A DNA stretch of 63,890 bases, counting the filler, from Hausera hauseri (lineage: Eukaryota), in NCBI GenBank assembly GCA_046269625.1. It is 11 parts of 11 records of this genome, joined end to end, with 100 filler letters (N's around TTAATTAATTAA, not from the genome) between each part and the next. Parts side by side here need not be neighbours in the genome. Positions count along the whole stretch, not along the records: positions 17,867 to 28,079 come from JBJURY010223298.1; 10 more parts are not named here. One strand, given 5' to 3'. Of this stretch, positions 8,441 through 44,970 are shown in pieces. The notes beneath the pieces are model-generated. The model saw nothing but the letters and a program-made list of their open reading frames with translations. It was not told the DNA's origin and made no database searches. A program made the position numbers and the translations under genes. Position 1 is the first letter of the stretch, and each line of letters starts with the position of its first letter.

Positions 8441-9427
8441 CGTCGGTCGCAGTTTTGAGAGGTCAGCCCAGAGTGGTGCTGATTCCAGGGTTCTTTAGAT
8501 TCTACAGTCCTCTTTGAGTGTGATCGAAACTGAAAATCAACGAGCTCCAGATGTTTTGTCAGATACCTTTTCTGATCTTAAGGTGTGCGTCAAGAGAGCC
8601 TTTTTGGAAAGAAAGACAGTCGCTGAGTAATGAACTGTCATATGAATTTGAATCTAAGTATGAAATTATTTGACTTTAAAGTATCAATTTTGGAAGTGAA
8701 GAATTTGTGAGTGACAGAAGGACTTGAGTTCTTGAAGTTGAAGATTCGCAGAGGATCTGCAGTGTGTTGTAATGGGTAATTTAATCGTTGTGTTCTATGT
8801 TTGGTTGATGTCAGTCTGTCTATTCTGTAATAATTGTTGTCTTGATTTTTCATTTGAGTCTTCTGTCTAAAACCTATTGAGTTATATTGTTTCACATATT
8901 TGGTTGAATATACTGGAAAGAATTTAAATTAGTTATCTCCAAGTGAGGTGATGTTGACGTTCCTGTGCGTTGAGTGGTCAAATTAGATATACTGTTGACT
9001 TGTGATATAGAGTAGTAATTCAGTTACTCTATTCAGTCCACTTGGTGTTGCTCGTGAACGTCGAATACTCCCGCAAAGGATCAACCAAGGCCATGAGTGT
9101 GCGTCATTGAATTAGCCATTCATTGACAGAATGAACCTATACTGAAGAGTTCATCCACACTAATAAACTAACACAGAGTCGTTCGCTTAAGCAGCGAGGA
9201 GAGAGTTGATGTGACGAGAGAAAACATAAAAGCTTTCCTGTCAAAAGTCCTCACAAATTAATCTGAATGCTTGTAGTTTAACCAGTTCCTCTGGGTCTGA
9301 CTGTCAGTGGCTCACAGTGGAATGGAGTAGTCTCTGACAGAGCGCACATATACCAGGATAGTTGTCGCCGTGTGTGCTGATTGGCAGTAGTATTATATGC
9401 GAGTAACGACGCGTATTTCAGGTGGTG

Positions 9428-9620
9428 CAGCGAGTACTAATCTAGTGGATATAAGGAAAATCTAGGGTGCAAGTGTTGCACCCGTGATGCGAACTTGCTT
9501 AGCGAGTGCTAATATTGCAAATATAAGGAAAAACCTATGCTGCAGGGGTGCACCCGTGATGTGGGCTCGCTGAGCGGGTATAATGAAAAAACCGGGCGAC
9601 ACGAGCTGGCTGAGCGGGCA
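9428..9620. repeat. ~72-bp tandem repeat (2-3 copies)
   Basis: AGCGAGT(A/G)CTAAT...ATATAAGGAAAA...TGCACCCGTGATG is repeated. Confidence 0.65.
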
Positions 9621-14364: not shown

Positions 14365-15201
14365 CTACGAACTCCACATTGGTTCGTAGAATTTTTGGAA
14401 ACAATTATTTATATATTGCAACCAAGTGCTTTTAATTTCTTCATTCGGATTCATGTTTGTCGAACTATTTTTGTATTTGTATTTTATTTGATTAAGTTTT
14501 ATCTCAAGTTTTGGAATCATGGTCATTAAACAATTGTCATTGTCTATTCGATTATTAATTCGATTTGTTAATTCTGCAGCGTGTTCTGAACCATTTTTGG
14601 AGAAATCTATTTTCTTCAACCAATTTCTAATTAAACTCAACGATTCAAATGGTTTGATGTTACAAACATAATTGTTGTATTCCCAAACACTTGATCGATT
14701 GTCAAGTGCAAAGACTGGATTAAAGCAGTCATTGAAAAAATGACATTTTGCTTTGTGCTTTGTTCCAAATTCTTTGAGATATTCTCCGGATACAATTCGA
14801 TTTTCAAAATACTTTCCTTTTGGATCTATAACTCGTAAAATACGAGATATTTCAGATAAACTGATTTCACTGAATATCCACAAATCAAATATTTGGCTGG
14901 CTTCTTCTAGGAAATTTTGAAGTCCAGGTCTTGACTGAATCAGAATGTGATACTCCCATGGTAAATAGGCATATCTCGCATTGAGACCGTTAGAAAAATT
15001 GATGTTATTTAATGACACGGAACGAGGCACTGAAGCACACGAAACAAGTGTGTTATCAAGATCACAAAGAAGGAATGGTTTGCTTCGTTTCCATTGCTGA
15101 TCTAAGCAAAAATGATGTTTGCAAGATTTATTCTGTAACAATTTTGCTTTCTTCAAATTAATTTCTGCTGAAATAATATTCGAAATATTTGAACATTTCA
15201 T
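14365..15201 (-). CDS. Intronless FCP1/CTD-phosphatase-like HAD (NIF/FCPH) protein, 278 aa, no BRCT
   Basis: LLCDLDNTLV (DxDxT motif), RPGLQNFLEE, IDPKGKYFENRIVS and ALDNRSSVW are collinear with the FCP1 catalytic domain. Confidence 0.8.
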   Translation of the reverse strand: MKCSNISNIISAEINLKKAKLLQNKSCKHHFCLDQQWKRSKPFLLCDLDNTLVSCASVPRSVSLNNINFSNGLNARYAYLPWEYHILIQSRPGLQNFLEEASQIFDLWIFSEISLSEISRILRVIDPKGKYFENRIVSGEYLKEFGTKHKAKCHFFNDCFNPVFALDNRSSVWEYNNYVCNIKPFESLSLIRNWLKKIDFSKNGSEHAAELTNRINNRIDNDNCLMTMIPKLEIKLNQIKYKYKNSSTNMNPNEEIKSTWLQYINNCFQKFYEPMWSS

Positions 15202-15760
15202 AATTAATGACTGATTTGATGTGAACGATTCTTTCTTAAATGGGACTAAATTTTTGTATAATTATATTTTCCAGTATTTATGTTGGTTAGATTTATTGGA
15301 ACGTATACCATATGGAGTTTGATGGTTACAAAAGTTCTAGAAATTTGCATTTTAAAATATCTTTCACTTAAACGTTAACTCTAATTTTGTAATTAGTATT
15401 TAAAATTTAAAATTTAAAATTTGTTAATTTTTAATTCATTCCCTATATGTGTGTGTTTGCATGTTTATCCACGGTCATTTTGCTTATGACGTTTACCCTG
15501 GACCCTGTGTCCAATAAGCAATATTCCCATGTGTCTTCTATCTTTAATTTGATTCCTGGTCGTCAATAAAAACATTCAATTTAATAAAACCGAACTGAAC
15601 ACGAAATTATATTTTAATTTTATATTAAAATTAGTTTTAATGAATTAAGATGCGGTTGAGAAAGTTTCAAAACATGAAACCCGGTTAATGATTTCCAGAT
15701 TAGACATTTCAGAAATTTATAAAAATTTATTAGAAGTTGAAGTTCTAATAAATTTTCATA

Positions 15761-17866: not shown

Positions 17867-18780
17867 CCCATGGTGTACTCGTGGTTTCTACGAGCATTTT
17901 CCACATAGAACCTTACCGGCGTTGGGATACTAGCCAGGAACCTCTGGCGCACAAGTGGAAGGTTCTCCACATCACATCCAGGGAGGGCTCGTTGAGCTAA
18001 ACCCAAGAGGCGGATGGCGAACACTGATATTGGTTCGTTTCGCTCCCTGGTAGCCTCCAAAAATCGGACGGAGTGGGCTTCTTCCTCTCGGTCGAGTTCG
18101 TCCTTGGCCCAGCGTAAGAGCTGCTCCTTCATCTCGTAATAACTGGCTGTTGAACGGACAGCGACCTGATAAACTTGAAGGACTGGTCCTTCCAGGTGCT
18201 GCTTCAAAAGATGGAGCATCCCAACTTCATCAATACCAGTATACATCTGTTGACAGAATGCTTCGTAGCGTTCCAAAAACCCATATAAAGGTTCGCCACT
18301 TTCAGGCGCGTATGTACCTAGCGAACTAGGTCTACCCTTTTTAGACATGGTGAGGTTCTGCATCATACTATTCATATTATTAATCAGCATTTGATTTTGC
18401 TGAAGCAAGTCCCTCACCATTGTGGAAAGTTCAAACTGCCCAAGCTCAGGTTGAGCAGCCCCCTGAAACATCGGGGTATTACCAATTGGTACGTTTTGTG
18501 CGCCCATTGACGGACCAGACGTTGCATGGATCTCCGCTGGCTGCGTTACGTTGATAAAATTTTGAAAATTTGGCCGAGGCCATGCAATGGAACTTATTGA
18601 AGGGGGAGTTGTTAAAAATGCGGAGGAGGTTACACCCACCCCAGTGGACAAATACTCCATTCCACCCTGGGCAGACAACTCACGCACTCGCCCCCCCATG
18701 GCGCCCACTGACTCATTCACAGTCCCACTGACCTCAGTCACCTTCAATTCATCATTAATTTTCTCTTCCTTTTGCTCCAT
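17867..18780 (-). CDS. gag: Gag, N-terminal part. It joins 28002-27150 across the circular junction; total 588 aa
   Basis: ATG at 18780 lies about 110 nt downstream of the PBS. Capsid-like region (FLERYEAFC...LEGPVLQVY...RERNEPISVFAIRL...RFLASIP). ENARRNHEYTM overlaps the start of the 27150-28040 ORF. Confidence 0.9.
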
Positions 18781-18888
18781 TGTGAAATTTATTAATCTAC
18801 TGTTACTTGATTAATTTGTTTTAGTAATAATTAGTAAACTAGTAGATCAAAAAGGAAAGGCTAAAGGGTGTTTGGTAACAGAACGCGC

Positions 18889-18906
18889 AACTACGCTCTG
18901 CTACCA
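18889..18906 (-). promoter_or_regulatory. Primer-binding site complementary to the initiator tRNA-Met 3' end
   Basis: Minus strand TGGTAGCAGAGCGTAGTT. Eukaryotic tRNA-iMet ends ...CTCTGCTACCA. Lies 7 nt from the LTR end ...CAACA. Confidence 0.85.
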
Positions 18907-18913
18907 ATTATTA

Positions 18914-20050
18914 TGTTGAGGGACACTCGGTGGTCGGGGTGGTGTCTTTTGTTGACTTTTGGGCGAAACGCTCCCGACACCGTAGCTAAACTAAGAAGGA
19001 AGTTCACTAATTTGCCCCTATATAAAAATAATTCGCGCGTTCCGTTCCAGATGCGAATGCTCAGCTTGGTGCAATCTTGAAACACTCAAACACACACTCA
19101 CAACCCTTTATCTCTTAGCAACCTTCACTTTCACTCCTCACACTTTATACCCAAACAAGGCTGACTAACCAAAGCTACTCGAAGGGCGAAAAAAATAAGA
19201 GAGCAATGGAACTAGGGTAGGCGTGTAAGGAATAGGAACAGATCTTCCGAGAAAGGAGAGATGAGCTATTGCAATTTACAAGAATGCAGCGTGGCACGTT
19301 TTTATTAATTTTATTTATAGATTTATTCAATAATTTATAATTACTTCGTACTACGTTTATGATTATAATTTTATTATATAATTAAGTATAGTTTTTGGTA
19401 CAAAATGAATCCCCTAACCTCAAGATCTCTTGTGGTAGAACTTCTGGAACTCAGGATCCTAATGTTGAAAGACCGATGACATCCACAGAGAAGGCGCCTT
19501 CTCTTGATACCACGTCCAGGCTGAGTTCTCAGATCCTTGGGGACTTCCAGTTGTATGATTATTTGCCTTTCGCAGGTATATGAAAAAAAAAGAAGAGAAA
19601 TACAATATATTAGTCATCGAGCTTTGACAGAAAAGTTACACATAAAAATAAATTTATTCTGCAAACTCGACGAGCTAAGGGGAAAAGAAAATTAAACAAC
19701 AACAATACAATTATATCATAAAAATTGTGCTTTTATATTTATATCATTTATATTGATTTTATATCCCAATGTTTAAACATTTGATAAATGTATCAATACT
19801 CACAGACGAAGGCTGCACACTTATTAGTGTTCTTAACTAGGTGATTTTTAATTTATATTTTTTCTATTTGTTAACCTTGAATCACCAAGTCATATATTTG
19901 TCATGATTTATTATCATTTATAATTAATTCAAATAGTTAAATTTTAATTTATTCAAATAATTATATTTTATTAACAAATATGAAATAAAAAGAGAGGAAA
20001 AAGAAGTTAGTATTTAATTCAACTACAAGAATTAGTTGTACAATATCACA
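18914..20050 (-). repeat. Single long terminal repeat (~1137 bp, TGT...ACA)
   Basis: On the minus strand it begins TGTGATATTG directly after the PPT and ends CCCTCAACA just before the PBS. AATAAA candidates lie near 19300. Confidence 0.7.
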
Positions 20051-20071
20051 TTCTTCCTCACCTCTTCTCTT
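20051..20071 (-). promoter_or_regulatory. Polypurine tract
   Basis: Minus strand AAGAGAAGAGGTGAGGAAGAA immediately before the TG of the LTR. Confidence 0.75.
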
Positions 20072-20422
20072 ACACTGCCTTGGCACTCCCATCCATTCTA
20101 TATCAATTATAATTCTAAAAATATATATATTTATAATAAATAATACACATTTTGCGATGGGTCGTACCAATTAAGGACCTCACCCAGGGCATATGCCGTG
20201 TATACGGAAAATCATACCATCGACCCATCACACTCCTCCCCACCCGCCGATACAAGATGGAACGGCGGAAACTCGGTATGTGACGGTCTGGCAAGTGACC
20301 GAGGCAAAAGGTAAAGTATCATGTATTAACATATAATTATATGTTGTTAATATTAAATTATTAAAGTCTTTACTAAAATTTTACTTACAATTTATTTACA
20401 TTACAATTTACATAACACCCCC

Positions 20423-21883
20423 CTATTGCCTCCATATGTCCCAGAGGTACTGTTCCGCCTCCCCCGGAGCAGGGACATAGCCAAAGGAAGCCATGTAACC
20501 CTGGATTCGCGCCGCCGCCAAATCCATCTCGCGGCGCGAAAGGGCCTGTATTAGTACAGGAGCCATAGCTGGAGGTGGAAGGCGGGGTCGAGGGATCCAG
20601 TAAGGGCGAGGTTGGCCTCTCCCAGATCTTCTGGTCCTGCAACGGCCTTGATGAATGGGGCCGCGTCGCATGCCTCGGGAGAAATTCCCCGGTAAAACCG
20701 GAGGAATAAAAAATTGGCCCCTCCCTCGAAGAGGAAATGACTGATGTGGACCTTGCACAGGCCCTGCCCGAGGGTGATGAGACGAACGGGGACCTGTTGA
20801 AGTAGCCCGCCTACCGGACTGTCCCCGTCCCCCTCGGGCACTTACCGTCCCACGCCTCACCGGTGCAGTGGTTAATATGGGGTCGTTAGTTGTGCTGGCG
20901 GCTGGCCCAGGAACTCTTCCGGAACGGGCTCTGGTGGCTCTTCTACTGGAGGCTCTTCTAGCCGGTCGGCCTCCAGTTCCACGGAAAGTGTCCCTAACTC
21001 CAGACGTTCCGGGTCTAGCATCGACCGAACCCGATGTTGAGGGCTCTGCTGTCATGTCTGCCTCTCCGCCAGGGAAGAAGAGCCGGTTCCTCACAGACGT
21101 GCGAGCTCTTCGTTTGGCTCCTCCTCGAGATGTACTGGCCTGGCGAGATGATGCTGAAGGTGGCAGCTTTAGACAGCGCCTCAACCTGGCCCAAAAACTT
21201 TTACAGTAATCTGGCGAGGGGTGAATGCCATCAACCAGATAACCTTCTTCTCCTAGCGTCTGGCATTCACCGGCCAGGAGACGTTCTAATTTGAGGCGTC
21301 GTGCTACTTTCGCGCCAGCAACATAACGCCCACATACCCGTTCTTTAACGGTGATAGCCCCGGCTAAATCTGATTCGGGGTCTACCAGTTCCAAATACCG
21401 TGCGATCGCAGCTTGAGAAATTCGAGAGGGCTGTAGCTGAGGATCCTCATCGAATTTCGTCTTGACCGCAGACGGTGCATCTTTCAAAGTCAAGTCATTC
21501 CGATAGATTAGATCTAATGGTGGCGGAAAAAATATGAAGGGTTTAGCATTAGGTGCTATTACCTTCACCCTTGACTTGAAAGTTCGGTACTTGGTGATTA
21601 TATGGTTTATAGAAAAGTTGGGATCCGGGATAACCACTTCGAACTTGCGGTCATCCCCTTGGATCCCCAGATCGAGTTTGGTAAATGATTCTGTTAAAAG
21701 GACAAACAGTACCACGTGCGTGGTATCTCGTGTCAGGTGGCCAGGAAGTTTTTTAATAATTTTCGTGAACCTGGCACCTGGGTACGAGGCAAACTCGACC
21801 TGGCCCGGGAAATTCCCGGGGTCCTTTCTGTATTGGTCCTGGAGATAATTCACCCAGGAATGGCCAATCAGCAACAGTTTCAT
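20423..21883 (-). CDS. ORF3: SGNH/GDSL hydrolase-like domain plus Arg/Gly-rich disordered tail (486 aa from ATG 21883)
   Basis: Block I LLIGHS (Ser codon 21857-21859), block II SYPGAR, block V DGIHP (His codon 21221-21223). Block III is atypical (VVLFVLLTES). Preceded by acceptor-like TTTCATTTTTTGCAG|ATG. Confidence 0.8.
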   Translation of the reverse strand: MKLLLIGHSWVNYLQDQYRKDPGNFPGQVEFASYPGARFTKIIKKLPGHLTRDTTHVVLFVLLTESFTKLDLGIQGDDRKFEVVIPDPNFSINHIITKYRTFKSRVKVIAPNAKPFIFFPPPLDLIYRNDLTLKDAPSAVKTKFDEDPQLQPSRISQAAIARYLELVDPESDLAGAITVKERVCGRYVAGAKVARRLKLERLLAGECQTLGEEGYLVDGIHPSPDYCKSFWARLRRCLKLPPSASSRQASTSRGGAKRRARTSVRNRLFFPGGEADMTAEPSTSGSVDARPGTSGVRDTFRGTGGRPARRASSRRATRARSGRVPGPAASTTNDPILTTAPVRRGTVSARGGRGQSGRRATSTGPRSSHHPRAGPVQGPHQSFPLRGRGQFFIPPVLPGNFSRGMRRGPIHQGRCRTRRSGRGQPRPYWIPRPRLPPPAMAPVLIQALSRREMDLAAARIQGYMASFGYVPAPGEAEQYLWDIWRQ

Positions 21884-22011
21884 CTGCAAAAAATGAAATC
21901 AATTGAAACGGTACTCAAAATGTATTATGATTACTATTATTTTTAATATTTTAAGAATATTTTATTTTATTTTATTTATTATTATTTAGTTTTATTACTT
22001 TATTTTCATTA

Positions 22012-25000
22012 TTACGAACGAGGTTTCCGCTCGAGAACACGAGGTTGTACGTTTGGAATATCCTCACAACGACCTCGAGAGCGGGTAAAAGGGCGGAGAT
22101 CCATGACAACATCGCAATCGATGTCGGTAACATTTTGTTCCAGTCTTGGATTACCGCTCGTAATTATGGGACTAACCGCGATCGGAGAATTTCCACTGGT
22201 TCTTGGTATATTACCTGGAAAATTTTCTAAACCTTCAATCAGGTCTGGGAAGCCTTCGAAGTCCCCTTCTTCTTCTGTCACAGCTGGGAAACCTTCGAAG
22301 TCCCATTCTAAGGATTGAGTGGAGTCAATGGATTCCTCGTCAGAGTCTATAGAAAAGGTCTCCAAATCCACTATTTCCAGGAAACTAACCCTCCTGCGAG
22401 AGTCAGTGGGCTCCATCGGACTTTTTCTCGATGACAATATCGATGGAAACTTGATATTGTAATTACGCAGGAAAGTTGAAAGATCAGGTGAACCAGTGTG
22501 AGCCGAATCAACGGAAATCCTACTTCTATTGTTAATATAATTACTATTAACATCGCTAAATATAGTACTAGTCTTTGCAGGGCTTGTCACATCTATCGCC
22601 ACCGCCGTAAGTTGGCTGATGATGCGCAAGACATTTTGTATTTTTACCAAGGACGCCCGCGTTTCTTCGTCCAGAGAAAACCCCTCAAAATCCTCTTCAT
22701 CTGCCTCGATCGACAGGTTATTCGCGTGACTAGTACGGTTTTCCGTATCATAACCACGAGTTTCGATTTGTTCGATCACTGGTGGTGCTGTAGGTTCAGG
22801 ATCCACTCGGATATCCCGCATAGCCTTGGCATTGAATTCCTCATGATTCTTCAAATACTCAGGAGGAATCTGCCATCTTTTCAATTGGCTATGGTGTACA
22901 CGGTACACTCGATTATCCTGACGGGACTCAATCTCGTACGTGACCTTATTTGGGTTGACTTCTATTACTTCCAAAGGACCCAAATATCGTGGAAGTATCT
23001 TATTTGACACGAGGTCACCTGAAAATTGTTTCTTCATACCCACTAGGTCACCAACCTTGAAAGCGTTGTAAAGAGGATGCCCGGGTTTCCAGAAAGACTC
23101 GATATTCTGTACGGGAAGTTCGTGAGATAACTTATGGGCCTTCTCCATTATGCTCTCACACGGTGTTAATAGCGTTTGAGCATGCTGGGTATGGTTATAC
23201 GTAACCAAGATATGAGGTAATTCAATATCCCAGTTAGTACTTTTGCTTAATGAAACGCGCAAATATTGGAGCAGTGTTCGATTGACACGCTCAACCATCC
23301 CATTGGACGAAGGTTTATATGGCGTCGTTGCGACATGTTTAATATTATATTTATCTAGAACATTTTGGAATTCACTGCCCAGAAACTCCTTTCCGTTGTC
23401 AGACAATAAACGTTCGGGAAGTTTCGGCAACATGGGCAGGATAATACGTTGTAGAGCGGACGCGACGGTAACGGACTGCTTATTCCTTAACGGAACCGCG
23501 GATACCCATTTTGAAAAATGATCAACGAAGACCAATATATATTTATTGCCTAAACGGGATATCGGCATTTGCATTAAATCCACCGCGGTAAGCTCAAATG
23601 GACCAAAAGTTACTATTTTAAACATAGGTGGAACAACTAACAAATTAGATAATTTCGAAGTTTGACACAGGTAGCACGTCGTCGGCACGTCATGGCAAAT
23701 CTTGTATAACGACGGATGCCAAATGTGTCTATCCAATAACGCAGTTAATTTATTCCTACCTAAGTGCGCATACTCTAAATGACATTTAATTACCACGTCT
23801 ACGGCCAGTGAAAACGGTACTACATAAGGTACATGTCCTTTCGCTGTAGTTTTATTTAAAATATCATTATAAATTCTATAATCCCGCTTAAATCGTAGGA
23901 AGGACTTCAATTCCCGCGAGAGATAACCAGTTATCCTAGTGGGGCTTTTTACACATTTAAATAACTTCCTGATCGTTTTATCAGCAGACTGCGCATATCG
24001 GATTGTCTCTTCCGATAGTAAGGACCCCTCAAAAGGGATTTCCTCCTCCGCTAATTCCTCTAGGCGGATGCACAACGCTTCGATCGTTTCGGATACCGAT
24101 TTTGATATTAACTCCTCCCCACCAGACCCGTCTAACTCCTTATTTAGAAGGTTAGCCTCAGTCCCTTGGGAGCACTCACGTTCCTCAAGAGATTCATCCA
24201 GAAGATTAAAGGAGACAAAGTTTCCTTCAATTTCTAGATGAGGATATGGGTCCTGTGGTTCAATCACCACCGAATCTGGTGTGGTTCCCAGGAGTAAATC
24301 GTAATGAACCCCCCCTAGGCATAAAAGTCTACACAGTTTTTCACTCGTGGTTGGGCCGAATCTAAGCGGTTCTCCACTGCCGTAATATACCCATACCTGA
24401 GTGTGGTAAAGAGTTGCGAATGCTTGAATAGCTTCGGTAATAGGCATTTGTCCTTCCTGTTTCATTAATTTTAACAGTTTAGTAATGCCTATGTGATTTT
24501 TACCACTCAATATACCATACTTCTGTTTATGATCCAGCAATTCCTGGATTACCTCTTCCCGCAATTGTAAATGTTTGTCGGTGGTGCCGAATCTCCACAA
24601 TGCTAGGCACATGAACAGTGAGTCACCCCCTCCTGGAACTTTATGAACGAAGGAACCTGGGGGCAATCCTTCCTCCACAGGTGAAGGGAGCGTCTCGTGC
24701 GCTGCCACTGGGGATCGCGACAAAGCATCTGCGATGATATTCTGTCGACCCGGAATGTATCGTAGTTCGTAATCGATATCATTAATCTCTTCTAATGTCC
24801 GGGCGACTCTCTGATTAACTAGAGACATGCTATTCAGGAAGATAAGCGGCTTATGGTCAGTATGAATAATGACCTTAATGCCGTATAAGAATGGCTTGAG
24901 TGATTTTATAGCCCATCGGATAGCGGCAACTTCTTTTTCCGTGGTGCTATATTTTACCTCAGCTTTTGACCAGGTGGTGGAAATATAAGCAATTGGTTTG

Positions 25001-27159
25001 AGGTCCCCTTCTTGTTCTTGGGCCAAGCAAGCTCCCGCTCCTACATTGGAGGCATCGACGAACAACATGAGCGGTGGTGCTTCAGGCTGTCGATTGGGAT
25101 ACACTAGCAAGGTGGGATTTACCAGTTCTTCCTTGAGTTGTTCAAAAGCTGTCTGACAGTCCTGAGTCCAACTCAAAGTTTTCTTACCCAAAATCTCAAA
25201 TAATGGCTTAGCTATTTCCGAACACCGTGGTATATGTCTACGATAAAAGTTTACCATGCCAAGGAATTGTCGTACTTTTCTAACCGTAGTAGGTATCGGG
25301 AATTCTTTAATTCCTTCGATACTCTTTTGTAGTGGGATCATTCCCCGTTCCGAAACCATGTGACCAAGGTATTGAACCTCTTTTCGTAGCAAGAAGGTTT
25401 TACTTGGTTTGATTTTAAAACCTGTATTTGAGAAAGCAATCAACACCTTTTCTAGGCTCCCCAGATGCTCCTCAAAAGTCTTGCTAATTATGAGGACGTC
25501 GTCAAGGTATACCATGACTTCCGTCCATGGGATGTGAGACAAAGCGTATCTCATACCCCGTTGAAAAGTGGCTGGTCCATTTTTCACCCCAAAGGGCATT
25601 CTTAGAAACTCCCAATGAGATATAGGAGTGGTGAAGGCAGTCAGTTCAATGCTGTCTTCCTCCATTTCAACCTGATAATATCCTTTGACAAGATCAAGGG
25701 TGGAAAAATATTTCACTCCTTGCAGGCTGAAAAGCATATCTATGAGATTTGGGATAGGGAAACTATCTCCCTTTGTAATTTTATTCAACTCCCTGTAATC
25801 TATACATAACCTCATAGACCCATCCTTTTTCTTTATTGGAACTACAGGAGCGGAGTATGGGGATTTACTCCGTCTGATGATCCCTTCGGCTTCTAACTTT
25901 TTACAATTCTCTTCAACCTCCTTTAATATGGGGCCTTGCAGTCTACGGACGGGTAGCTGCACTGGATCGGTGTGAGTGACCTCGATCCGATGTTTGATGA
26001 CTGACGTGCATCCTACGTCGCCATCGTGCAAACTTAGAGCGTCCGGATACTTCATCAGGAGAGAGCGAAGCTGATCTTTTTGCTCCCCCGTGATGTCCGA
26101 ATCGTCTAACCTGAAGTCAAAGTTAAGTTTGGCTTCAGTCCATCCGGATTGTTCAACATCATCGGGAGTCTCGGCCAACTCCACGACATTGGCCTGGGCA
26201 TCGACTGGATCTGCCCATTCGAGTGTCCCGATCTGCTGACCCTTTTTGACTTTCAAATACCTTGACCCCTCATTATAGGCCAAGATAAATGCTCTATCTC
26301 CCCTAATTTTTACTAGTCCGCTTGGGGAGATGAACTTGCAATTCTCATTGCTAACAAATAATGGTAAGGTTGAAGAATTTTCACCCGCAAACTTAGGAAT
26401 TTCTATTTCTACTATTTTCCCTGAATACGGGCCTAGCGAAATAGCTTCGCCTAAATAGCAATCAATATTATTTTCATTTACCTCGCGCCGCGTATCAAAT
26501 GCTACCGTTTGAACGACATTACCGATACGCTTTACTAATTCGCGTTCTCGGGAGTCGGGTAACAAATGCTCATTGCTAAGAATATCGAATCCCATAATTA
26601 CATCGTGATGAGTGAGCTCATCGGGAATAACGATAAACGTATGAGAGTTTAAGGTAAATGTTTTGGAAAAACCTAAGTTCAAATCAAGTGCCCCTATAAT
26701 CGGGTACTTTACCTTTCCAATACCGCTGATGCTACGATACATCGTCGGTTTAAGGGGAAAGATATCGCAATTCAATTGCTCATAGCAACGGCGGGTAATT
26801 AAGCTAACTGTAGCCCCCGTATCAACAAAAGCGACGTATGACGTTTGTGGCTGTTCCACTACATGCACTTTAATTAATAGTGCTTCTGGCGAGAGTGTCG
26901 ATAATCCCAACTCGATGTTAGGTTGGTCATCTAGCTCGTCGTCCAGAGCGTTCACTACGTCTTCTGTTTCTTTTTCTTCTTGCGGCTTGTCTTGAAACGG
27001 ATCAAGATCAGCTGCCGTCAAGAAGGGATCGACTCTTAAGAGGTCTTGGATTATGGGAATCCTCTCTTCAATGGAAGATGATGGAGAGCCATCCAGTACC
27101 TCTTTTTGGATCGCTTCCCCTGAGCCGAGGTCTTCTGACTCAGAAGCAGCTAGTTTCCC
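22012..27159 (-). CDS. pol: Pol (via -1 frameshift): protease, dUTPase-like spacer, RT, RNase H, OTU-like domain, integrase, acidic tail
   Basis: Uninterrupted 1732-codon frame containing FVDTGA, LCIDYRELN, MPFGVKNGPATFQR, YLDD (25498-25509), FVDAS, TDHKPL, DALSR, VPGGGDSLF...HYD, HHCC zinc motif, VDL/SDNG/MVER DDE triad and YLGPLEV. Confidence 0.97.
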   Translation of the reverse strand, partial: GKLAASESEDLGSGEAIQKEVLDGSPSSSIEERIPIIQDLLRVDPFLTAADLDPFQDKPQEEKETEDVVNALDDELDDQPNIELGLSTLSPEALLIKVHVVEQPQTSYVAFVDTGATVSLITRRCYEQLNCDIFPLKPTMYRSISGIGKVKYPIIGALDLNLGFSKTFTLNSHTFIVIPDELTHHDVIMGFDILSNEHLLPDSRERELVKRIGNVVQTVAFDTRREVNENNIDCYLGEAISLGPYSGKIVEIEIPKFAGENSSTLPLFVSNENCKFISPSGLVKIRGDRAFILAYNEGSRYLKVKKGQQIGTLEWADPVDAQANVVELAETPDDVEQSGWTEAKLNFDFRLDDSDITGEQKDQLRSLLMKYPDALSLHDGDVGCTSVIKHRIEVTHTDPVQLPVRRLQGPILKEVEENCKKLEAEGIIRRSKSPYSAPVVPIKKKDGSMRLCIDYRELNKITKGDSFPIPNLIDMLFSLQGVKYFSTLDLVKGYYQVEMEEDSIELTAFTTPISHWEFLRMPFGVKNGPATFQRGMRYALSHIPWTEVMVYLDDVLIISKTFEEHLGSLEKVLIAFSNTGFKIKPSKTFLLRKEVQYLGHMVSERGMIPLQKSIEGIKEFPIPTTVRKVRQFLGMVNFYRRHIPRCSEIAKPLFEILGKKTLSWTQDCQTAFEQLKEELVNPTLLVYPNRQPEAPPLMLFVDASNVGAGACLAQEQEGDLKPIAYISTTWSKAEVKYSTTEKEVAAIRWAIKSLKPFLYGIKVIIHTDHKPLIFLNSMSLVNQRVARTLEEINDIDYELRYIPGRQNIIADALSRSPVAAHETLPSPVEEGLPPGSFVHKVPGGGDSLFMCLALWRFGTTDKHLQLREEVIQELLDHKQKYGILSGKNHIGITKLLKLMKQEGQMPITEAIQAFATLYHTQVWVYYGSGEPLRFGPTTSEKLCRLLCLGGVHYDLLLGTTPDSVVIEPQDPYPHLEIEGNFVSFNLLDESLEERECSQGTEANLLNKELDGSGGEELISKSVSETIEALCIRLEELAEEEIPFEGSLLSEETIRYAQSADKTIRKLFKCVKSPTRITGYLSRELKSFLRFKRDYRIYNDILNKTTAKGHVPYVVPFSLAVDVVIKCHLEYAHLGRNKLTALLDRHIWHPSLYKICHDVPTTCYLCQTSKLSNLLVVPPMFKIVTFGPFELTAVDLMQMPISRLGNKYILVFVDHFSKWVSAVPLRNKQSVTVASALQRIILPMLPKLPERLLSDNGKEFLGSEFQNVLDKYNIKHVATTPYKPSSNGMVERVNRTLLQYLRVSLSKSTNWDIELPHILVTYNHTQHAQTLLTPCESIMEKAHKLSHELPVQNIESFWKPGHPLYNAFKVGDLVGMKKQFSGDLVSNKILPRYLGPLEVIEVNPNKVTYEIESRQDNRVYRVHHSQLKRWQIPPEYLKNHEEFNAKAMRDIRVDPEPTAPPVIEQIETRGYDTENRTSHANNLSIEADEEDFEGFSLDEETRASLVKIQNVLRIISQLTAVAIDVTSPAKTSTIFSDVNSNYINNRSRISVDSAHTGSPDLSTFLRNYNIKFPSILSSRKSPMEPTDSRRRVSFLEIVDLETFSIDSDEESIDSTQSLEWDFEGFPAVTEEEGDFEGFPDLIEGLENFPGNIPRTSGNSPIAVSPIITSGNPRLEQNVTDIDCDVVMDLRPFTRSRGRCEDIPNVQPRVLERKPRS
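27110..27159 (-). promoter_or_regulatory. -1 programmed ribosomal frameshift signal (G GGA AAC plus downstream stem-loop)
   Basis: Heptamer GGGAAAC (27153-27159) sits immediately before the gag TAG, and pol is in the -1 frame. About 5 nt later GCTTCTGAGT...GCTCAGggGAAGC can pair. Confidence 0.85.
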
Positions 27160-28002
27160 GATTTCTGGGTGCAATCCACCCCCAAATGTGCTCCTTTGCA
27201 AATGGGGCACTGGGGCACTTCGTCACGTCCCTTATTAGGACATTCAGGAGCTATGTGTCCTTTCTCCTCACAGATTATACACTTCCGCTGGGCCACATAG
27301 CAATCCTGATGGACGTGCCCACGCTTTCCGCAGAAATGACAAAGGGGGCGCTTGCGACACTGCCCCATGTGATGGCCACGCTGTTTGCAGTGGCCACACT
27401 TCTGCGGAGATTGGGCCTGCCTCCTAGGCGGTGTCCTAGGAGGCGAAGCCGGCGGCGCTCTAACCGCTTGTCGCTGAATCTCCCGCTGAGGTTTGGGACT
27501 CGGCGGGGGAGTTCGCTTCGGGCTCTGAGTCGGTTTGTATTGAACTCTTTGGTTCATATTTGTATTATTCTTATTATTGTTATTTTTACTATTATTATTA
27601 TTATATCTATTATTATTTCTTTTTGGGGACTTAGGAGGAGAAGGTGGAGCCGTTGACCTCCTATAATTAGTATTGTAGTAAACGCTTTCCTTGGGTCGAG
27701 CCCCACGCACGGCATCCGCATATGATCGGGACTCTCCCTCTCCAATATAAGCAGGCATCGGTGGTCGTTCCCACCTTTGCGGCTCAATTGGAGTAGGTAA
27801 CGCTTGATATGCCTCCGGGTGATAATTTACCGTTGGGTTGGGCTGACCCCAACGGTTTTGACAATGACAATGGTGCTGTGTGTTACCCCTTGTGGGTGCC
27901 ACCATTGTCAAGTCAATGATCTCAGGTACGGCCTGAGAACCATTGACGGAGGGCATATTAGCGTCGACCAGGGATACGAACTGTTCCCAGGTCATACGGG
28001 AC
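27150..28002 (-). CDS. gag: Gag, C-terminal part with Pro/Asn-rich linker and four zinc knuckles
   Basis: CGHCKQRGHHMGQC, CHFCGKRGHVHQDC, CIICEEKGHIAPEC and CPICKGAHLGVDC. Ends KSGN-TAG. Confidence 0.92.
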
Positions 28003-28198
28003 CCCATGGTGTACTCGTGGTTTCTACGAGCATTTTCCACATAGAACCTTACCGGCGTTGGGATACTAGCCAGGAACCTNNNNNNNNNNNNNNNNNNNNN
28101 NNNNNNNNNNNNNNNNNNNNNNNTTAATTAATTAANNNNNNNNNNNNNNNNNNNNNNNNNNNNNNNNNNNNNNNNNNNNCATTGTGAACATACGTATT

Positions 28199-29999: not shown

Positions 30000-32900
30000 T
30001 AATACCTTAGATTTCTATCTCATATATCAAGGTCTTATTATACATCCTTCCGATTCCCTTTTACTGTTCATATGTCACCAATATTCGATCATCCATTTCA
30101 CGCTCCACTTCCGCCTTTGCTGTTGATGGGACGCAAATCCATCTTTCTCGGATTATAAATCTACAAATACATGCAATATCTATCGTTTACCAAACTCTCA
30201 ACAATCACGAGCTTTGATAAATCTACCTTGTGTGGAATTTTGCCTTGATAAAAACAATTCCATTAAACCATGGCTCCAATTCTACCAACAGTGATTAAAA
30301 TCTAACAACTTTACTGACTCTTTTGTGTGAGCCAACAATATTTTAATTCTTCTGCCTGCTAACGTTAAGCACCAGATCAGCAACATTTCCAAATTGCTTC
30401 AATACTCGACACCTGTACTCCATATCACGGATCCTTCTATAGACAATATTATATAAAAATATTTTAACGACCAGGCGATAGGAAACCAAAAGCCATCCGA
30501 TTTTCTCCAAACGGCTGTTTTGCACCTTAGCGCCTTAGGCGTAACACCTACAAATAACGCGGATTTAATTCGCGTTATTTCTTGTCATCTTTGCCCATCT
30601 CAATTAGAGCCTTGCTTACCACCGTCGACGAGACTACGGCTATTGAAAAACTGGCCATAATGGCTGATAAGTCCTTTGGAATCTTCCATACAACTAAATC
30701 TCCCCCAACTGCGGCTGCAACCACACATGCGCTAGCTACAGACGTAGCATTCCTCACTTAACAATGGCAAATGATTCAACACCAATTTGACACAATACAT
30801 CAGTCAATTTCGGCCATTACTACCCAACTGAACAATCTTAATGGGCCGCGGCGAAGCGAAGCCAGACCTTCAAGGGAGCGAAACACTTCAAGACACTCTA
30901 CGCGATCAATTTCATCTGGCGGACGCATGGCCTGCTTCTATCCTACGAGGTTTCGGAAGGATGCAAGGAAATGTTTTATGGGCAGCCGGTTCTACAGCGA
31001 ACCATACGCTGTGGACAACCCTATTTACATTTACCACAATAAGTTTCAGTCACAGGCCAGATCATGCGTGCTTGGTTGCAAATATTACCAAAATAAATCT
31101 CTTCCTTTGTCCTCCCCTTCTTTTTTTCCAAATCCTTCAAAAAACTAATAACGCTGCCAGATTACACGGCATATTCTGGTATAGGCACTACATCGCATTC
31201 CTCTGGCCGTCTTAATATGACCTCTGCTCTCTTTTTGTTAAAATCTGCAATCTTCTCTGACAATTCATCAAATATAGACTTTCTCATTGACTCTGGAGCA
31301 ACCTTTTCCCTTTCCTCCATCTTTCGCTCCAACGTCCAACAATTTTTCTTCGCCTCAACTCTTCACAGCCAGTGGGCAGCCTTTACGCATTGTTGGCACC
31401 ACAGAGCTAACTTGTACCTTCAATCACTTACCAGACATGTTTGTTTAGAAGTTCTTCATTGCTAACATAAATTCACCAATAATCGGCTCGAATTTCTTGA
31501 CGGCACACGATCTATTGGTAGATTGTAAATACGGCTGTCTGCTGCGCAAGAACTCAATTGCAAATCCAATTAAATGACTCACAGACAATCTAGCGAGCAA
31601 TGCATTGCACCCCTCTGTAAATATGTTGAACGGCTCGTCAACTATTGACAAAACTTTCGATAAAGTCCGTATTCCTTCAATTATGAATAACAATTACAAA
31701 CCTATTTTAAAACAAAAATCTAAATTGGGCATTGACAGTGGTAATGTCAGTTGCTTTACGTCAATTACTGCAACTGTTTCTTCCTATAACATGCCTCAAC
31801 TATTCTTATCTCTGGACTCCATTCTTAAATCATACATCACAACGTCTTGCTTTTGCATATTTAAAAGGGACATCAACTTCAAGCCTCCATCCTGAACTTA
31901 TCATCACATAGTAATAGAGCATCAGAGGCCTATCAAACAAAAAGTCAGACCCTTGTCTCCACACAGACGTAAAGCTATGGAACAGGAATTTAATGAACTT
32001 GAAAAGTCTGGCATCATTCGGAGATCAAATTTACCTTAGGTTTACCCTCTTCATGTTGTAGCAAAGAAAGATGGTACTTATAGGCCATGTGGAGACAATC
32101 GCCAATTAAACAACTTGACTATTACAGATGCTTATCCACTGCCACTAATTAGGGATATCCTTCATAGCCTCAATAACACCAATACCTATTCTACCATTGA
32201 CTTGCACAAGGCCTATCATCAAATTCCTGATGTACCTGATGACATTCCAAAAACTGCTGTCATCACACCATTTGGCCTTTATGAATACATCTTTATGCCT
32301 TTCGGCCTATGTAGTGCATCTCAGACCTTTCAATGCCACATTGACACCGTTCTCCCGGGTCTTGATTTTGCTCACCCATATTAGTCGCTTCCTGATCCAT
32401 CAAACAACATCATGAGAACCTTAGAATTATTTTCCACAGATTGCATAAAAAGAATCTGAAAATAAATTTCGCCAAATGCAATTTCTTCCAGAAACGCGTC
32501 AATTTCCTAGGCCATATAACTACTCCCGAAGGTCATTCGCCCCAGTGTGATCGCTTACAACAATTGAAAAATGTGACATTACAAAATACTACCACCAATA
32601 TGAGGAGTTTTCTAGAAACACTGCACTTCGTATACAAATACGTGCCACACTGCTCCGAACTAATGTCACCTTTTGCACACCTCTCATCGGGTAAAAAGCC
32701 AATTAGTCCACTAAACTCCCGATCTAGTAAACTATTTTGGTCGTTTTTGTGAAGGTCTGAAAACCGTTGAAATCTTGATTTTTCCAAAGCCAAACGCGGA
32801 ACTGATATTAACTACCGATGCCTCAACCACAGCCAATGGTGCAATATTACACCAAATATACAATGGTGTAGACGAGCCATTGGACTTCTATGCCTAAAAG

Positions 32901-33637
32901 CTCACGCAACCGGAAAGCCGATACTCAACGTTCGATTGGAACTCCTGGCCGTAGTTCTAGCGGTAAAGTATTTCAAGCATTTTCTTCTATTACGTCAATT
33001 TACCATCCAAACCGACCACAAGCCTCTACTTCATATAATGACGTTAAAATAGACATCACACAGACAAGAACGACAGATATCATACATGTCGACATTCAGT
33101 TTTTTCATAAAATATATTTAAGGCACTGAAAATTTAGTAACAGATTTTCTGTCGTGGTCTGTCAACTCAATTACAGTTCGGCCAATTTTCTCCTCTGAAG
33201 TCCTGAGAAGTAATCAGCCATCTTCTGATATTCTCCAAACTTTAAAATCGGTTGAGATCATCGATGGCATCGCCTACGACACATCCAACTAGACTAATAA
33301 AAAATCATTCTTGCTCCATCGCTACAAAAGACAGCTTTAACGTATTTTCACTCTTTATCACCCGGATTAAAAAGCCATATTTCGTCTACTGAAACGCCAC
33401 ATTATATGGCCAACTATGTGTACAGATGTACAAATCTGGGTTAAGAGATGTGCAGCACGCCAGCAATACAAGGTCCTCAAACACCTTATACCACCACTTT
33501 ACCACGTCCCTCGCACATTTTGTTTTGACACTGTTCATTTGGATCTTGTCGGTCCTTTACTATCCGATAACGGCTATCAATATATCTTATCCATGACGGA
33601 TCGCACTTCTTGCTGGCCTGAAGCCGTTCCGCTTCGA
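30000..33637 (+). pseudogene. Decayed Ty3/Gypsy gag-pol, same family as 1039-4309 and 54523-56063
   Basis: Gag remnant ending SKN* with slippery A AAA AAC (31139-31145). Pol motifs FLIDSGA, KKDGTYRPCGD, TPFGLYEYIFMPFGL, TDASTTA and VHLDLVGPL, with many stops and frameshifts. Confidence 0.9.
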
Positions 33638-33737
33638 NNNNNNNNNNNNNNNNNNNNNNNNNNNNNNNNNNNNNNNNNNNNTTAATTAATTAANNNNNNN
33701 NNNNNNNNNNNNNNNNNNNNNNNNNNNNNNNNNNNNN

Positions 33738-35420
33738 TATCCAGATATGACTAAGCCATTCATATTGGCAACGGATGCAAGTGATTATGGAGTAGGAGCG
33801 GTATTATCACAAAAAGATGAAGATGGTAGGGAACATCCAGTTGCTTATGCCTCGAGAAAATTAAATGAACATCAAATGAAATATGCAATTATTAAAAAAG
33901 AATTATTGTCGGTAATATTTGCATTAGAAGTATTCTCATCGTATATTAGTGAAAATAAACCGTTGGTAGTTAATACAGATCACCGACCACTGCAATGGTT
34001 AAAGAAACATGAAAACCCGAATAGTATATTACTACGATAGGCACTAAAACTCCAGCCATATACATTAGATTTCTAATATAACCAGGTACGCGAAATGCGA
34101 ACGCGGGTTATTTATCAAGATTACTACAGGAAAAAGGAAAAGGGGAAGTTGTAGCGGCAATGTGGCGCATGGATGGATCCATAAAAACACAAAGGAGAAC
34201 CAAAGGAAAGATGAAGAGATAAAAGCAATAAGGAGTTTTATTCAAAATAAAATAGTACCTAAGGATAGAGAATTAGCTCGTCACTTAACCAGATTTGGAG
34301 ATGCTTATGAAGAAAAGGACGGATTTTTGTATTATATTCACCAAATGGACCAACATTAATAATTCCAAAAAATAGAGTTGTATTATTAACTCAATACCAC
34401 GATGGATTACTAGGCGGTCACCAGTCGGAAAGAAAAACAATAAATAAGTTGAAAAGGAAATATTTCTGGCCAACTATAACTCAAGATATTCCAAACTGGT
34501 GTGATAGTTGTAAATTATGCGCTACTCGAAAGAATACCGGATCCAAATTTAAAGCTCCGCTAAAAGTTTGGGACAATCCCTTTGGTCCATTTGAATTTAC
34601 CGCAATGGACATAACCGGACCTTTACAACTAACAAGAAATGAAAACCGGTACATTCTCGTGTTTATAGATTACTTTATCCGATGGGTCGTTGCAGTGCCC
34701 ATGCCAGATATGAAAGCAGAAACGATAGCTGAAAAATTTGTAGAAAATATAATATTTAATTATGGAGCTCCTCAAATCCTGTTAACAGACCAAGCATCTA
34801 ACTTAACCGGTAATGTAATGCAAGCAATATACGATATTATGAAGATTTTAAAATTGCGGTCTACTCCGGGACATCCAAAGAACAATGGAATGGTGGAAAA
34901 ATACATAGGAGATCTGAAAGAAAAACTACAAACGGTAGTTAATGTATGACAGGACAACTGGGATAAGTATATTAATGCGTGTGTATTTGTAAATCGAACG
35001 TCTGTACATGAAGCTACCAAAGAAACACCTTTTTATATGATGTATTTAAGAGATGCTCGGTTACCAATTGATTTGGATTTCCACGTACGACCTATATCTC
35101 AGTTGATGGAAGTAGAAGAATAAAAACAATTAATGCAAGAACGCTTACAGCTAGCGTACAAGATAGTGAAGGACAATCAGAAAGAGTACAAATCGACGTA
35201 CAAGAAATATTATGATGAGAAAACTAAACAACCCAAGATTAAAGTTGGAGACAAAATGATGTTGTATATACCAATAAATAAGAAAGGTAAGACATCCAAG
35301 TTGGATAGACCGTATAAAGGACTGTATGAAGTAGAAAAAGTGGATTTACCTCATACATGTTGAAAGACGAATAATGGTAGAATTAAGGTACATGTCAAGA
35401 GGTGCAAAGCTGTGCCTAAG
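33738..35420 (+). pseudogene. pol: Decayed Gypsy RNase H-integrase (element F)
   Basis: PFILATDASDYGVGAVLSQ, TDHRPL, MDITGPL, LTDQASN, NNGMVEK and RPYKGLYEV. Confidence 0.92.
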
Positions 35421-42879: not shown

Positions 42880-44970
42880 AAGCAGAATTGAAATTAAATC
42901 CGAAGAAATGTAAATGGGGTCAAAACGCCGTATTCTACCTTGGCCATGTAATAGGAAAAGGTGGATCAAAACCAGATAAATCACTACAGAACAAGATATC
43001 AAATTGCACGGAGCCGAAAAATCAGAAAGAGTTAAGACACTGGCTAGGGTTATGTAGATAATACGCCACATATGTGCCAGATAATTCGGAGATAAATTCA
43101 CCCTTATATCGCTTTCTTAAGAAAGGAATTAAATGGGGATGGGCAGACGTCGAATAGAAAGCTTTCGACGAAATGAAGAAGATATTAACAAGTGAACCAA
43201 TTTTACAATACCCGAACTTCCACTTATCCTTTATAATCAAGATAGATGCCAGTAATGAAGGTATTGGATATGAATTAGCGCAGAAAAGAGAAGATGAAGA
43301 ATTAGAACACCCAATTGCTTATGAAGGACGTTCCTTTAAGAAGGCCGAGAAAAATTATTCCGTTGCTGAATTAGAAACTGTATCAGTAAAAGAAGAGCTT
43401 CGAGACTTCAACGTTTACGTGTACGGGCAGAAAATTATATTTGTCACTATCATGAAATCGTCCCGATTTAAGAAAACGAGCAAACAATCCGACATGCAGA
43501 CTTAACAAATGGATCGAAGAAATCACAATATCGAATTCCAGTATAAGCCAGGAAATAAACATGTAGATGCCTACGCACTATGAAGACTAAAGACCAGAAC
43601 AAGTGCAATCACTGTAATGATGAAAAATCAGCTTGAAGAAATAATAGATCGCCAAAGCACCTTAACGTTGGATAAAGCCATTAAATCCTCAATCGAACAA
43701 AGAAAGGATAGAATCATCTAGCAGATTATAGAATTTGCCGAGAAAAACCTAATACAAAAAGGACGACAATTAAAAAAACATTTACTCAGACACGGATATA
43801 AATACTGTGTCTTTAATGACCACAACAGTGGAGACATTTTGTATTACGAACGAAAAGAAAGAAAATTAATAGTCATCTCAAATAACTTACACTCCGAGGT
43901 TTTAATGGCGGAACACGACTCATATTTAGCAGGGCACATGTCGTAGAAAAAGGCGCTGGAAAGAATATTAAATAAATACTTTTGACCCAGTATCTATATT
44001 AATGTGAAGAATTGGGTAAATGCTTGTGAAGTATGTGCGACCAAACAAAAGAAGACAAAGAACTACATGGCTGAATTAAAACCAGTCAATGTACCTGATA
44101 GACCGATGCAAACTTTGTCGGTGGATATTGTAGGACCTCTTCCTATGACCAACAAAAACAATAAATATATCTTAACTTGTATTGATCGACTAACTCATTT
44201 TGTCGAGTCAATAGCGCTAGCTGATCAGAAGGCAGAAACTTTGGCCAAAGCTGCAGTAAGAAGAATCATTTGCCGATATGAATCCCAGACCAAATATTAA
44301 CAGATCGAGAAAGAAATTTTACAAGTGAACTATTCGAGTAGATTACCAAAATATTCGAAATCGAACGGTTTGCTACTACCGCGTATCACCCTCAGTGCAA
44401 TGGAATGGTTGAACGAATAAATGCAACTGTCATACGCATTCTACAAACAGTAGTAGGTAAGCGCCAAAACGATTGGGACGAATTTTTAAAAGGACCTCAA
44501 TTTGCAATTAATGCCACCCCACATCCGGCAACAGGATTTACTTCATTTTTATGATGCATGGAGGTGAAGCTGTGTTACCCAAAGACTTAGGAATGGCGCC
44601 ATACGCAGTCAATCCCGAAGATTTAAAACAAAACTTCGCGGAAGTATTACAGGCGCGGTTAGAAAAATGTTGGAAAATCTCCAGAGAGTTATCTCAAGAA
44701 TATCAAGAACAGTTCAAAAAGCAATATGGTAAGAAAGCGAAACCGCATGATCTAGAACGTGGAAATAGGTTTCATGTACATTATTTAGTAGCCGCGAAAG
44801 GCACGTCATTAAAACTGACACGTACAAGAAGAGGACCATACGAAGTTACTAGAGTTATGCCAACTACAGTGTATATCAACAAGAATGGAAAGGAAGAGGC
44901 CGTATCAGTACAAAGAGTTGTTAAGACGGAGATACGGCCCAATAAACATTATAATTTACGACAACGCGAG
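42880..44970 (+). pseudogene. pol: Decayed Gypsy RT-end/RNase H/integrase (element H)
   Basis: FIIKIDASNEGIG, VDIVGPLP, AYHPQCNGMVER, RGPYEV and HYNLRQR. Confidence 0.92.

Follow-up and report, generated by a model that had tools for sequence, protein, structure and literature searches.

The locus described here raises the question of what a retroelement carries at the position of env when the gene found there does not resemble an env, how such a gene is expressed, and what its product might do. The window that we analyzed is a 63,890-nt stretch of DNA from Hausera hauseri (assembly GCA_046269625.1), consisting of 11 parts separated by filler, and the gene (ORF3) lies in the part that comes from contig JBJURY010223298.1 (positions 17867–28079). 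A preliminary description had read ORF3 as a spliced gene joining an SGNH hydrolase to an RG-rich tail. The window as a whole resembles repeat-rich animal DNA, and its neighboring contigs hold pieces of other LTR-type reverse transcriptase (RT), RNase H, and integrase genes (2057–3924, 31902–35030, and 42888–44542). Another contig holds a 298-aa frame (14365–15261, minus strand) with a NIF-like phosphatase domain (PF03031, E 1e-15). Rfam and ARAGORN each returned zero matches.

ORF3 Occupies the env Position of an Intact Ty3/gypsy Element

The contig is a circularly permuted, intact Ty3/gypsy element that reads LTR, PBS, gag, pol, ORF3, and PPT on the minus strand, to which all element coordinates below refer, and its three ORFs are all intact. 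The two contig ends share a 77-nt overlap, giving a 10,136-nt circle: either the assembly merged the two LTRs of an element, or the circle has only one. For this reason we see a single LTR (18914–20417) of 1504 nt, delimited by TG...CA with 4-bp inverted ends, and with the PPT (20418–20433) and the PBS (18895–18906) at its borders. The PBS, which we take to be of the initiator-Met tRNA type, follows the LTR after 7 nt, and no ATG occurs in the element between the LTR end and gag. The gag frame runs from an ATG at 18780, across the contig ends, to 27150; its 5' part occupies 17867–18780, and its 3' part (27150–28079), which contains the zinc knuckles (a Pfam zf-CCHC match), reaches the contig end and the 77-nt overlap with the other end. 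We rejected a DIRS/Ngaro reading of this end repeat, which lies within gag and results from overlap in the assembly.

A slippery-type heptamer (27153–27159), whose sequence suggests use in frameshifting, immediately precedes the gag stop, and pol, which is in the -1 frame, overlaps with gag. Near this heptamer, the gag of the element has the terminal residues SGN, which are also those of the gag of a relative, L004. Pol itself (22012–27222) has Pfam domains at residues 128–217, 463–622, 685–813, and 1135–1304, in the gypsy order protease, RT, RNase H, then integrase, with an OTU-like insert between the last two; a Pfam search at E up to 1 found no dUTPase family in pol. At the pol C terminus (22015–22100), we also observed a short motif of the RPxTRSxG..LPxVQ..LE type, a kind of ending shared by many pols of the OTU clade. 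After an A/T-rich spacer of 128 nt comes ORF3 (20423–21883), which encodes 486 aa, has 19 homologues, and ends within the PPT. The env position given in the preliminary description is borne out, and we regard the anatomy of the element and the linkage of ORF3 to pol as practically certain.

Pol Contains an OTU-Like Insert

The preliminary description had overlooked two features, namely a conserved helix pair at the C terminus of ORF3, which is described below, and the insert in pol. The latter, an OTU-like domain that separates RNase H from integrase (24292–24639, pol residues 862–977), has a Ser at the catalytic Cys position and has kept the His. It matches OTUD3 (4bou) with a phmmer E value of 0.011, and OTU clusters of the Atlas with a score of 0.94 and 191 shared features. 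The insert occurs in 96 of the 120 pol relatives listed, which are the best 120 of 3864 matches. Among these 96, the catalytic Cys position is taken by Ser (73), Thr (12), Ala (9), or Met (1), is unaligned in one, and is never Cys, and the His is kept in 82. In a FastTree phylogeny of the 120 pol rows, the 96 insert rows, including that of the element, group with one insert-less row at support 1.0. The domain may act as a pseudo-deubiquitinase, or else as a deubiquitinase of a serine type.

OTU domains are reported in Ginger1 and Helitron (accessible text of PMC2836005), and the literature that we searched (Repbase, subscription journals, figures, and supplements aside) yielded no description of a gypsy pol with an OTU domain between RNase H and integrase. 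With OTU patterns, the yield was 0 of 58 for viral contigs and 3 of at least 600 for metagenomes; L003 and L004, two of the three, stop inside pol. The pol of L004 (4711–7944) is a more distant OTU-bearing one with what looks like another protease-like stretch, placed after the OTU-like domain and before integrase, an arrangement that would fit the Pfam lists of many relatives. The insert is also found in P0079, a pol annotated as coming from the bdelloid Rotaria socialis, which is either a rotifer element or contamination.

ORF3 Is Probably Translated from a Spliced RNA

ORF3 is open for 486 codons up to a TAG stop (20425–20423), which has a chance of ~2e-9 given the base composition. Errantivirus env is made from spliced RNA, and the preliminary description had pointed to a strong 3' splice site abutting the ORF3 ATG. 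This putative site (21884–21902) is indeed there, with a branch-like pentamer, a pyrimidine tract, and CAG, and the AG of the acceptor (21898–21884), at 21885/21884, directly abuts the ATG at 21883. Scored with a textbook-style matrix, the acceptor ranks second among the 655 AG sites of the element.

These features can be read in two ways. We consider it probable that ORF3 is translated from a spliced RNA, a view to which the acceptor sequence and the gene models of relatives lend support. The other reading, which concerns expression only, is that ORF3 is translated from unspliced RNA, by reinitiation or internal entry over the A-rich spacer, the acceptor being a by-product of an AT-rich spacer. 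ORF3 does have its own ATG, and acceptor-like sites of this strength arise without an ORF3, since in L002, a relative that lacks the gene, three sites outscore the ORF3 acceptor, one of these lying 3' of pol, where there is no ORF, and since the one higher-scoring site of the element itself lies in the LTR (19674) with no long frame behind it. Against this, pyrimidines increase immediately 5' of the ATG, and none of 100,000 shuffles of the 128-nt spacer had an equally good site beside the ATG (62 had one anywhere). Moreover, a Gln directly precedes strand 1 of the encoded domain in the relatives P0004 and P0020, as in the element's own frame, and there is no Met between this point and the catalytic Ser in P0017, P0018, P0020, and P0025. 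In P0017, P0018, and P0025, gene-model junctions, which are those of predicted models and not of transcripts, fall just before strand 1, and in the P0016 family of Armadillidium vulgare the annotated start Met lies downstream of the catalytic Ser. Provided that the gene models are right, some relatives thus seem to need an upstream exon for their start codon, and we view translation from unspliced RNA as unlikely.

For the spliced RNA, the 5' part of gag offers five candidate donors, with predicted last exon bases at 18742, 18733, 18640, 18418, and 17917. These are the five best donors there, and all are in phase 0 with ORF3 (5 observed versus 0.9 expected, P 0.0005 by synonymous resampling), at a cut-off chosen after looking and under an imperfect null, as ORF3 itself gives 3 versus 0.3 expected. 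In-frame joining of such a donor to the acceptor would produce a Gag(N)–SGNH fusion, in the particle or docked on it, whose esterase would enable this crustacean gypsy clade to spread from cell to cell with neither Env nor fusogen. Because the donor threshold was post hoc and ORF3 shows a similar excess, the fusion is only a lead, and we rate this scenario as highly improbable. Separately, the tail of ORF3 holds two strong donors (20846/20861) and the third-best acceptor of the element (20568), which lies 2 nt ahead of Met440, the first residue of the C-terminal module; these may allow a truncated or module-only isoform or be due to chance.

As for membrane targeting, neither a signal peptide nor a transmembrane (TM) segment was detected in ORF3 by hydropathy and the structure model, which were used in place of a dedicated predictor. 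This agrees with the preliminary description. Strand 1 of the domain makes up the N terminus, and among 19-residue windows the highest hydropathy, 1.32, falls on a core strand. Hydropathy maxima range from 0.76 to 1.55 in 15 members of the ORF3 family, and ORF3 has no myristoylation Gly.

The First Module of ORF3 Has a Predicted SGNH Hydrolase Fold

Pfam and NCBIfam hold no SGNH or other family for ORF3 or its relatives, and a PDB sequence search with alignment A1 found no match at E up to 10. Structure prediction was more informative. AF2 with an 18-row alignment modeled residues 1–240 (21164–21883) with a pLDDT of ~95; a model made from the single sequence had a mean pLDDT of 40 and was not used. 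The top 50 VIA matches listed span the domain and are all SGNH/GDSL-type chains, as are those of Foldseek. The best VIA match is yeast Iah1 (3mil; Z 15.7, rmsd 6.1, 198 aligned), and a sialate esterase (7pzg; Z 14.5, rmsd 2.8, 173 aligned) and PAF acetylhydrolase (1bwp; Z 14.2) also score highly, the top structural matches being short-chain and carbohydrate acetyl-esterases. In the Atlas, unnamed clusters lead (0.95), and clusters with 21–30% GDSL members stand at 0.92. The α/β SGNH fold that had been expected over approximately residues 1–235 was thus found by AF2, Foldseek, and VIA, and on these models there is hardly any doubt that residues 1–240 correspond to an SGNH hydrolase. A shared fold, of course, demonstrates no function.

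The active site is partly canonical. The motifs GHS (residues 7–9) and DGIHP (218–222) are present, as had been noted, and provide Ser9, Asp218, and His221, so that by sequence the triad residues appear intact; Gly36 is the block II Gly. In alignment A2, counting only rows with coverage at each position, the Ser is conserved in 12/13, the block II Gly in 12/14, and the Asp and the His each in 16/17, the His, the Asp, and the Ser being absent from the single relatives P0012, P0006, and P0007, respectively. For block III, the preliminary description was right that GxND is missing, since ORF3 reads L-L-T-E, with Thr64 and Glu65 at the Asn and Asp positions, but the block appears to be degenerate rather than absent and the oxyanion hole to be remodeled. 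In a register set from the position after strand 3 and from two Asn rows, rather than by superposition, the Asn position of 17 rows is occupied by Thr (10), Ser (2), Asn (2), Arg (2), and Pro (1), and the Gly position is Gly in none of the 17. In block I, a His is found where Asp, Asn, Gln, or Thr is usual. The changes in blocks I and III may make activity low or altered, and yet loss of the Asn does not imply a dead enzyme, since NanS, SsfX3, and AlgX have no Asn at this position either (PMC10792757, as far as its Table 2 goes). The domain is basic, with a pI of 8.4–9.7 in eight of the nine proteins examined. From these residues, it is reasonably likely that ORF3 is catalytically active.

What the domain would act on, or bind, can be construed in several ways. 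One is that ORF3 is a counter-defense or host-modifying enzyme, a deacetylase or de-acylase directed at a host protein, a lipid signal, or a glycan, perhaps alongside the OTU-like domain of pol. A cytosolic location, the acetyl-esterases and PAF acetylhydrolase among its closest folds, and the ubiquitin-protease-like domain of the same clade would all suit such a role, and a separate subgenomic RNA would permit timing apart from Gag. It is nevertheless unlikely, considering that the esterase of ZfL2-1 ORF1p showed no peptide deacetylase activity (PMC3905857, accessible text), that the OTU-like domain is present without ORF3 in L002, and that there is no known substrate.

Somewhat less likely again is that the domain is an Oskar-like, weakly catalytic or noncatalytic binder of RNA or protein that serves germline localization. 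Its degenerate block III, its basic character, and the triad losses in single relatives would fit, and Oskar OSK (5a4a), which shares the SGNH fold, is among the VIA matches (Z 11.8, rmsd 3.2, 163 aligned). However, OSK ranks only 36th, below true esterases, and lacks the whole catalytic triad (PMC10792757, in the portion available), which the ORF3 family keeps in most rows.

The Linker Evolves Freely, and the C-Terminal Helix Pair Is Conserved

Downstream of the SGNH domain, residues 241–439 (20567–21163) form a linker that is predicted to be disordered (pLDDT <50 for residues 251–435) and is not conserved in the family. The preliminary description had reported ~200 aa rich in Arg, Gly, Ser, and Pro, with RGG and RGRG motifs. 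This composition is there (39 R, 28 G, 26 P, and 22 S in residues 241–440) and so are the motifs, but these amount to only two RGG and one RGRG. It had also made the RG tail the main point of the protein, supposing that this tail, by RNA binding or condensate formation, delivers the esterase to the RNP and so, perhaps, allows particles through membranes in the absence of Env. In favor of this, the tail is disordered, has 18% Arg, a net charge of +33, and 10 RG, Arg reaches at least 10% in the tails of 8 of 16 relatives, the gene lies at the env position, and ZfL2-1 ORF1p is thought to bind RNA via an arginine-rich motif (Schneider et al. 2013; PMC3905857, available portion). The comparison with relatives speaks against it. 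It covered the 16 that have full motif V and a tail (P0015, P0017, P0018, and P0020, with no motif V, were excluded), and in these RGG is found in 0/16, RG numbers 0–3 each versus 10 in ORF3, and the net charge is -12 to +12 versus +33, several tails being net acidic. An RG tail as a conserved family trait was therefore rejected. The two RGG of ORF3 are far apart, and the repeated, conserved RGG/RG motifs that define an RGG/RG box for RNA binding were not seen. In addition, unlike sORF2 (PMC11952523, accessible text), ORF3 is devoid of a TM segment, a signal peptide, and a myristoylation Gly, the hydropathy maxima of the family are those given above, and the linker is the fastest-changing part of the protein. 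We thus find a role centered on the RG tail improbable, more so than an Oskar-like one.

As for the short helical end of the preliminary description, it is indeed predicted, as a pair of helices (residues 440–466 and 475–485, pLDDT 74–88) within a conserved module comprising residues 440–486 (20426–20566). A leave-one-out HMM recovered the last 40–45 residues, with scores exceeding those of all 300 shuffles per protein, in 11 of 14 relatives, and missed them in P0008, P0009, and P0013; for ORF3 itself the match is weak (2.9 bits versus a shuffle maximum of 1.2). The helix pair probably has a role in self-association or docking. Between P0008 and P0021, there are 8/236 differences in the domain, 19/186 in the linker, and 3/50 in the C-terminal part, and the sums for the P0016 cluster, over 11 of its 14 other listed members (three partial ones excluded) and with non-independent pairs, are 34/1562, 64/1364, and 10/418, respectively. 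The linker thus appears to change fastest, and the domain and C terminus more slowly, which is a protein-level proxy for purifying selection and not a dN/dS estimate.

ORF3 Belongs to a Family That Travels with One pol Lineage

A phmmer search with residues 1–240 against 1.84 billion representatives found 19 proteins with 25–33% identity (E 3e-28 to 3e-4). Eight of these are named, none from a rotifer, and all eight are hypothetical or fused gene models of Armadillidium vulgare or A. nasatum; one relative belongs to a 24-member cluster spread across many scaffolds. In five Armadillidium gene models, pol pieces are fused to the SGNH domain, with P0040 (three models) or P0038 (two models) as best pol match. 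Since both of these pols fall with that of the element in one five-member clade (support 0.91), ORF3 travels with this pol lineage. The closest named pol, from A. vulgare, is 72% identical over RT–RNase H.

L002 has a pol with an end like that of P0051, which belongs to the same 16-member clade as the pol of the element; over the ~2 kb that follow, the ORF3 profile found no match. ORF3 was therefore either lost there or gained within the clade, and it is dispensable in at least one relative. L002 also has a long 3' region repeated at both ends (1–620 and 8800–9556) and a seemingly very short TG...CA unit before the PBS. Wider searches for relatives gave little: word-index searches returned 0/7999 candidates for P0001 and 1/7999 for alignment A1, pattern matches in metagenomes (199) and in viral sequences (43) included no confirmed DNA of an ORF3 relative, and an RT scan gave only one weak, unrelated locus.

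We conclude that ORF3 is a genuine accessory gene under selection in an isopod-linked Ty3/gypsy subclade of invertebrates. That it is carried along neutrally, or is a frame open by chance, as the lack of a Pfam or NCBIfam family and its absence from L002 might suggest, is a notion that we dismiss, the chance ORF being already largely refuted by the homologues with their conserved motifs, the confident fold, and the multicopy intact relatives.

A Possible Mode of Action and Its Precedents

We propose that ORF3 is an accessory gene whose product would work as follows. Splicing to the acceptor at 21884 from a 5' exon would generate a subgenomic RNA, and from it a soluble, cytosolic three-part protein would be translated, consisting of the SGNH domain, the linker, and the helix pair. 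The first would be a basic serine hydrolase with intact triad and remodeled oxyanion hole, the second a freely evolving disordered tether, and the third would mediate self-association or docking. The protein would thus resemble ZfL2-1 ORF1p with its parts in reverse order, combining slow acyl esterase activity with lipid binding, and its esterase module would tie the particle or RNP of the element to intracellular membranes. We offer this proposal as a whole tentatively, its prospects being somewhat short of even; the membrane or lipid role, taken by itself, is argued by analogy and is rather doubtful.

The analogy with ZfL2-1 concerns an ORF1p that has a dimerizing coiled coil, an Arg-rich motif, and a weakly active esterase, which is basic and slow and binds liposomes (PMC3905857, available portion). 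As far as the accessible sources go, ORF3 and the ORF1p of ZfL2-1/CR1/RTEX each combine, within a single protein, a basic SGNH domain whose block II includes PGAR, an Arg-rich linker, and a helical module, and the block II of ORF3 (YPGARF) is close to that of the ZfL2-1 esterase (FPGARV; PMC10792757, available part of Table 2), a resemblance that hints at kinship with transposon esterases. In contrast, the ZfL2-1 protein is a non-LTR ORF1 with the order coiled coil–ARM–esterase and a canonical block III (HVGTND), and its transposon-specific His191 is not kept in ORF3, where block position gives Phe60. The ZfL2-1 structure (4C1B) is absent from the Foldseek and VIA matches listed (top 50), which its domain swap may explain.

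An SGNH ORF3 at the env position is already known from the bdelloid Vesta LTR elements, whose GDSL/SGNH ORF3s have no TM or coiled-coil, and for which membrane penetration has been suggested but is unproven (Rodriguez et al. 2017; PMC5408684). As in Vesta, the hydrolase is a separate ORF3 after pol, without TM and of similar size (1.3-kb clones in Vesta, activity unproven). However, Vesta has a dUTPase between protease and RT that is missing here, and it keeps all four of S, G, N, and H, whereas the element has Thr at the Asn position; by description, the OTU-like pol insert and the C-terminal helix pair also set the element apart. Ngaro-like tyrosine-recombinase (YR) elements, too, carry an SGNH ORF of unproven function at their 3' end, but these have split direct repeats, in contrast to the DDE integrase, LTR, PBS, and PPT found here (PMC9210276, accessible text). 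With errantivirus env and sORF2, ORF3 shares its place as a third gene, and with env an acceptor before the ORF; these, however, are membrane proteins or fusogens, as ORF3, lacking signal peptide and TM, is not, and Env-free spread in Drosophila depends on sORF2, a TM protein of the MDG1 group (PMC11952523, in the portion available). No SGNH ORF3 in crustacean gypsy elements was described in the literature searched (again with Repbase, subscription journals, figures, and supplements aside), and the accessible portions of PMC6431247, PMC7998251, and PMC2836005 describe no such gypsy element.

What is new here is therefore a separate gypsy clade with a Ser-type OTU-like pol domain, an apparently remodeled oxyanion hole, and a C-terminal module. 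The Ser-type insert, which 96 pol relatives share, is perhaps the bigger of the features so far unreported. Esterases of the SGNH type have turned up repeatedly, in LINE ORF1s, Penelope, Ngaro, and bdelloid LTR elements, with a role in retrotransposition undemonstrated in the literature surveyed, and to these our analysis adds a gypsy clade in which the SGNH domain is a free-standing third gene missed by Pfam and NCBIfam. The multicopy intact members in woodlice, together with a close relative lacking ORF3, provide a natural with/without comparison, and the kept triad and seemingly rebuilt oxyanion hole make the question of enzyme versus binder directly testable on a soluble 240-residue domain.
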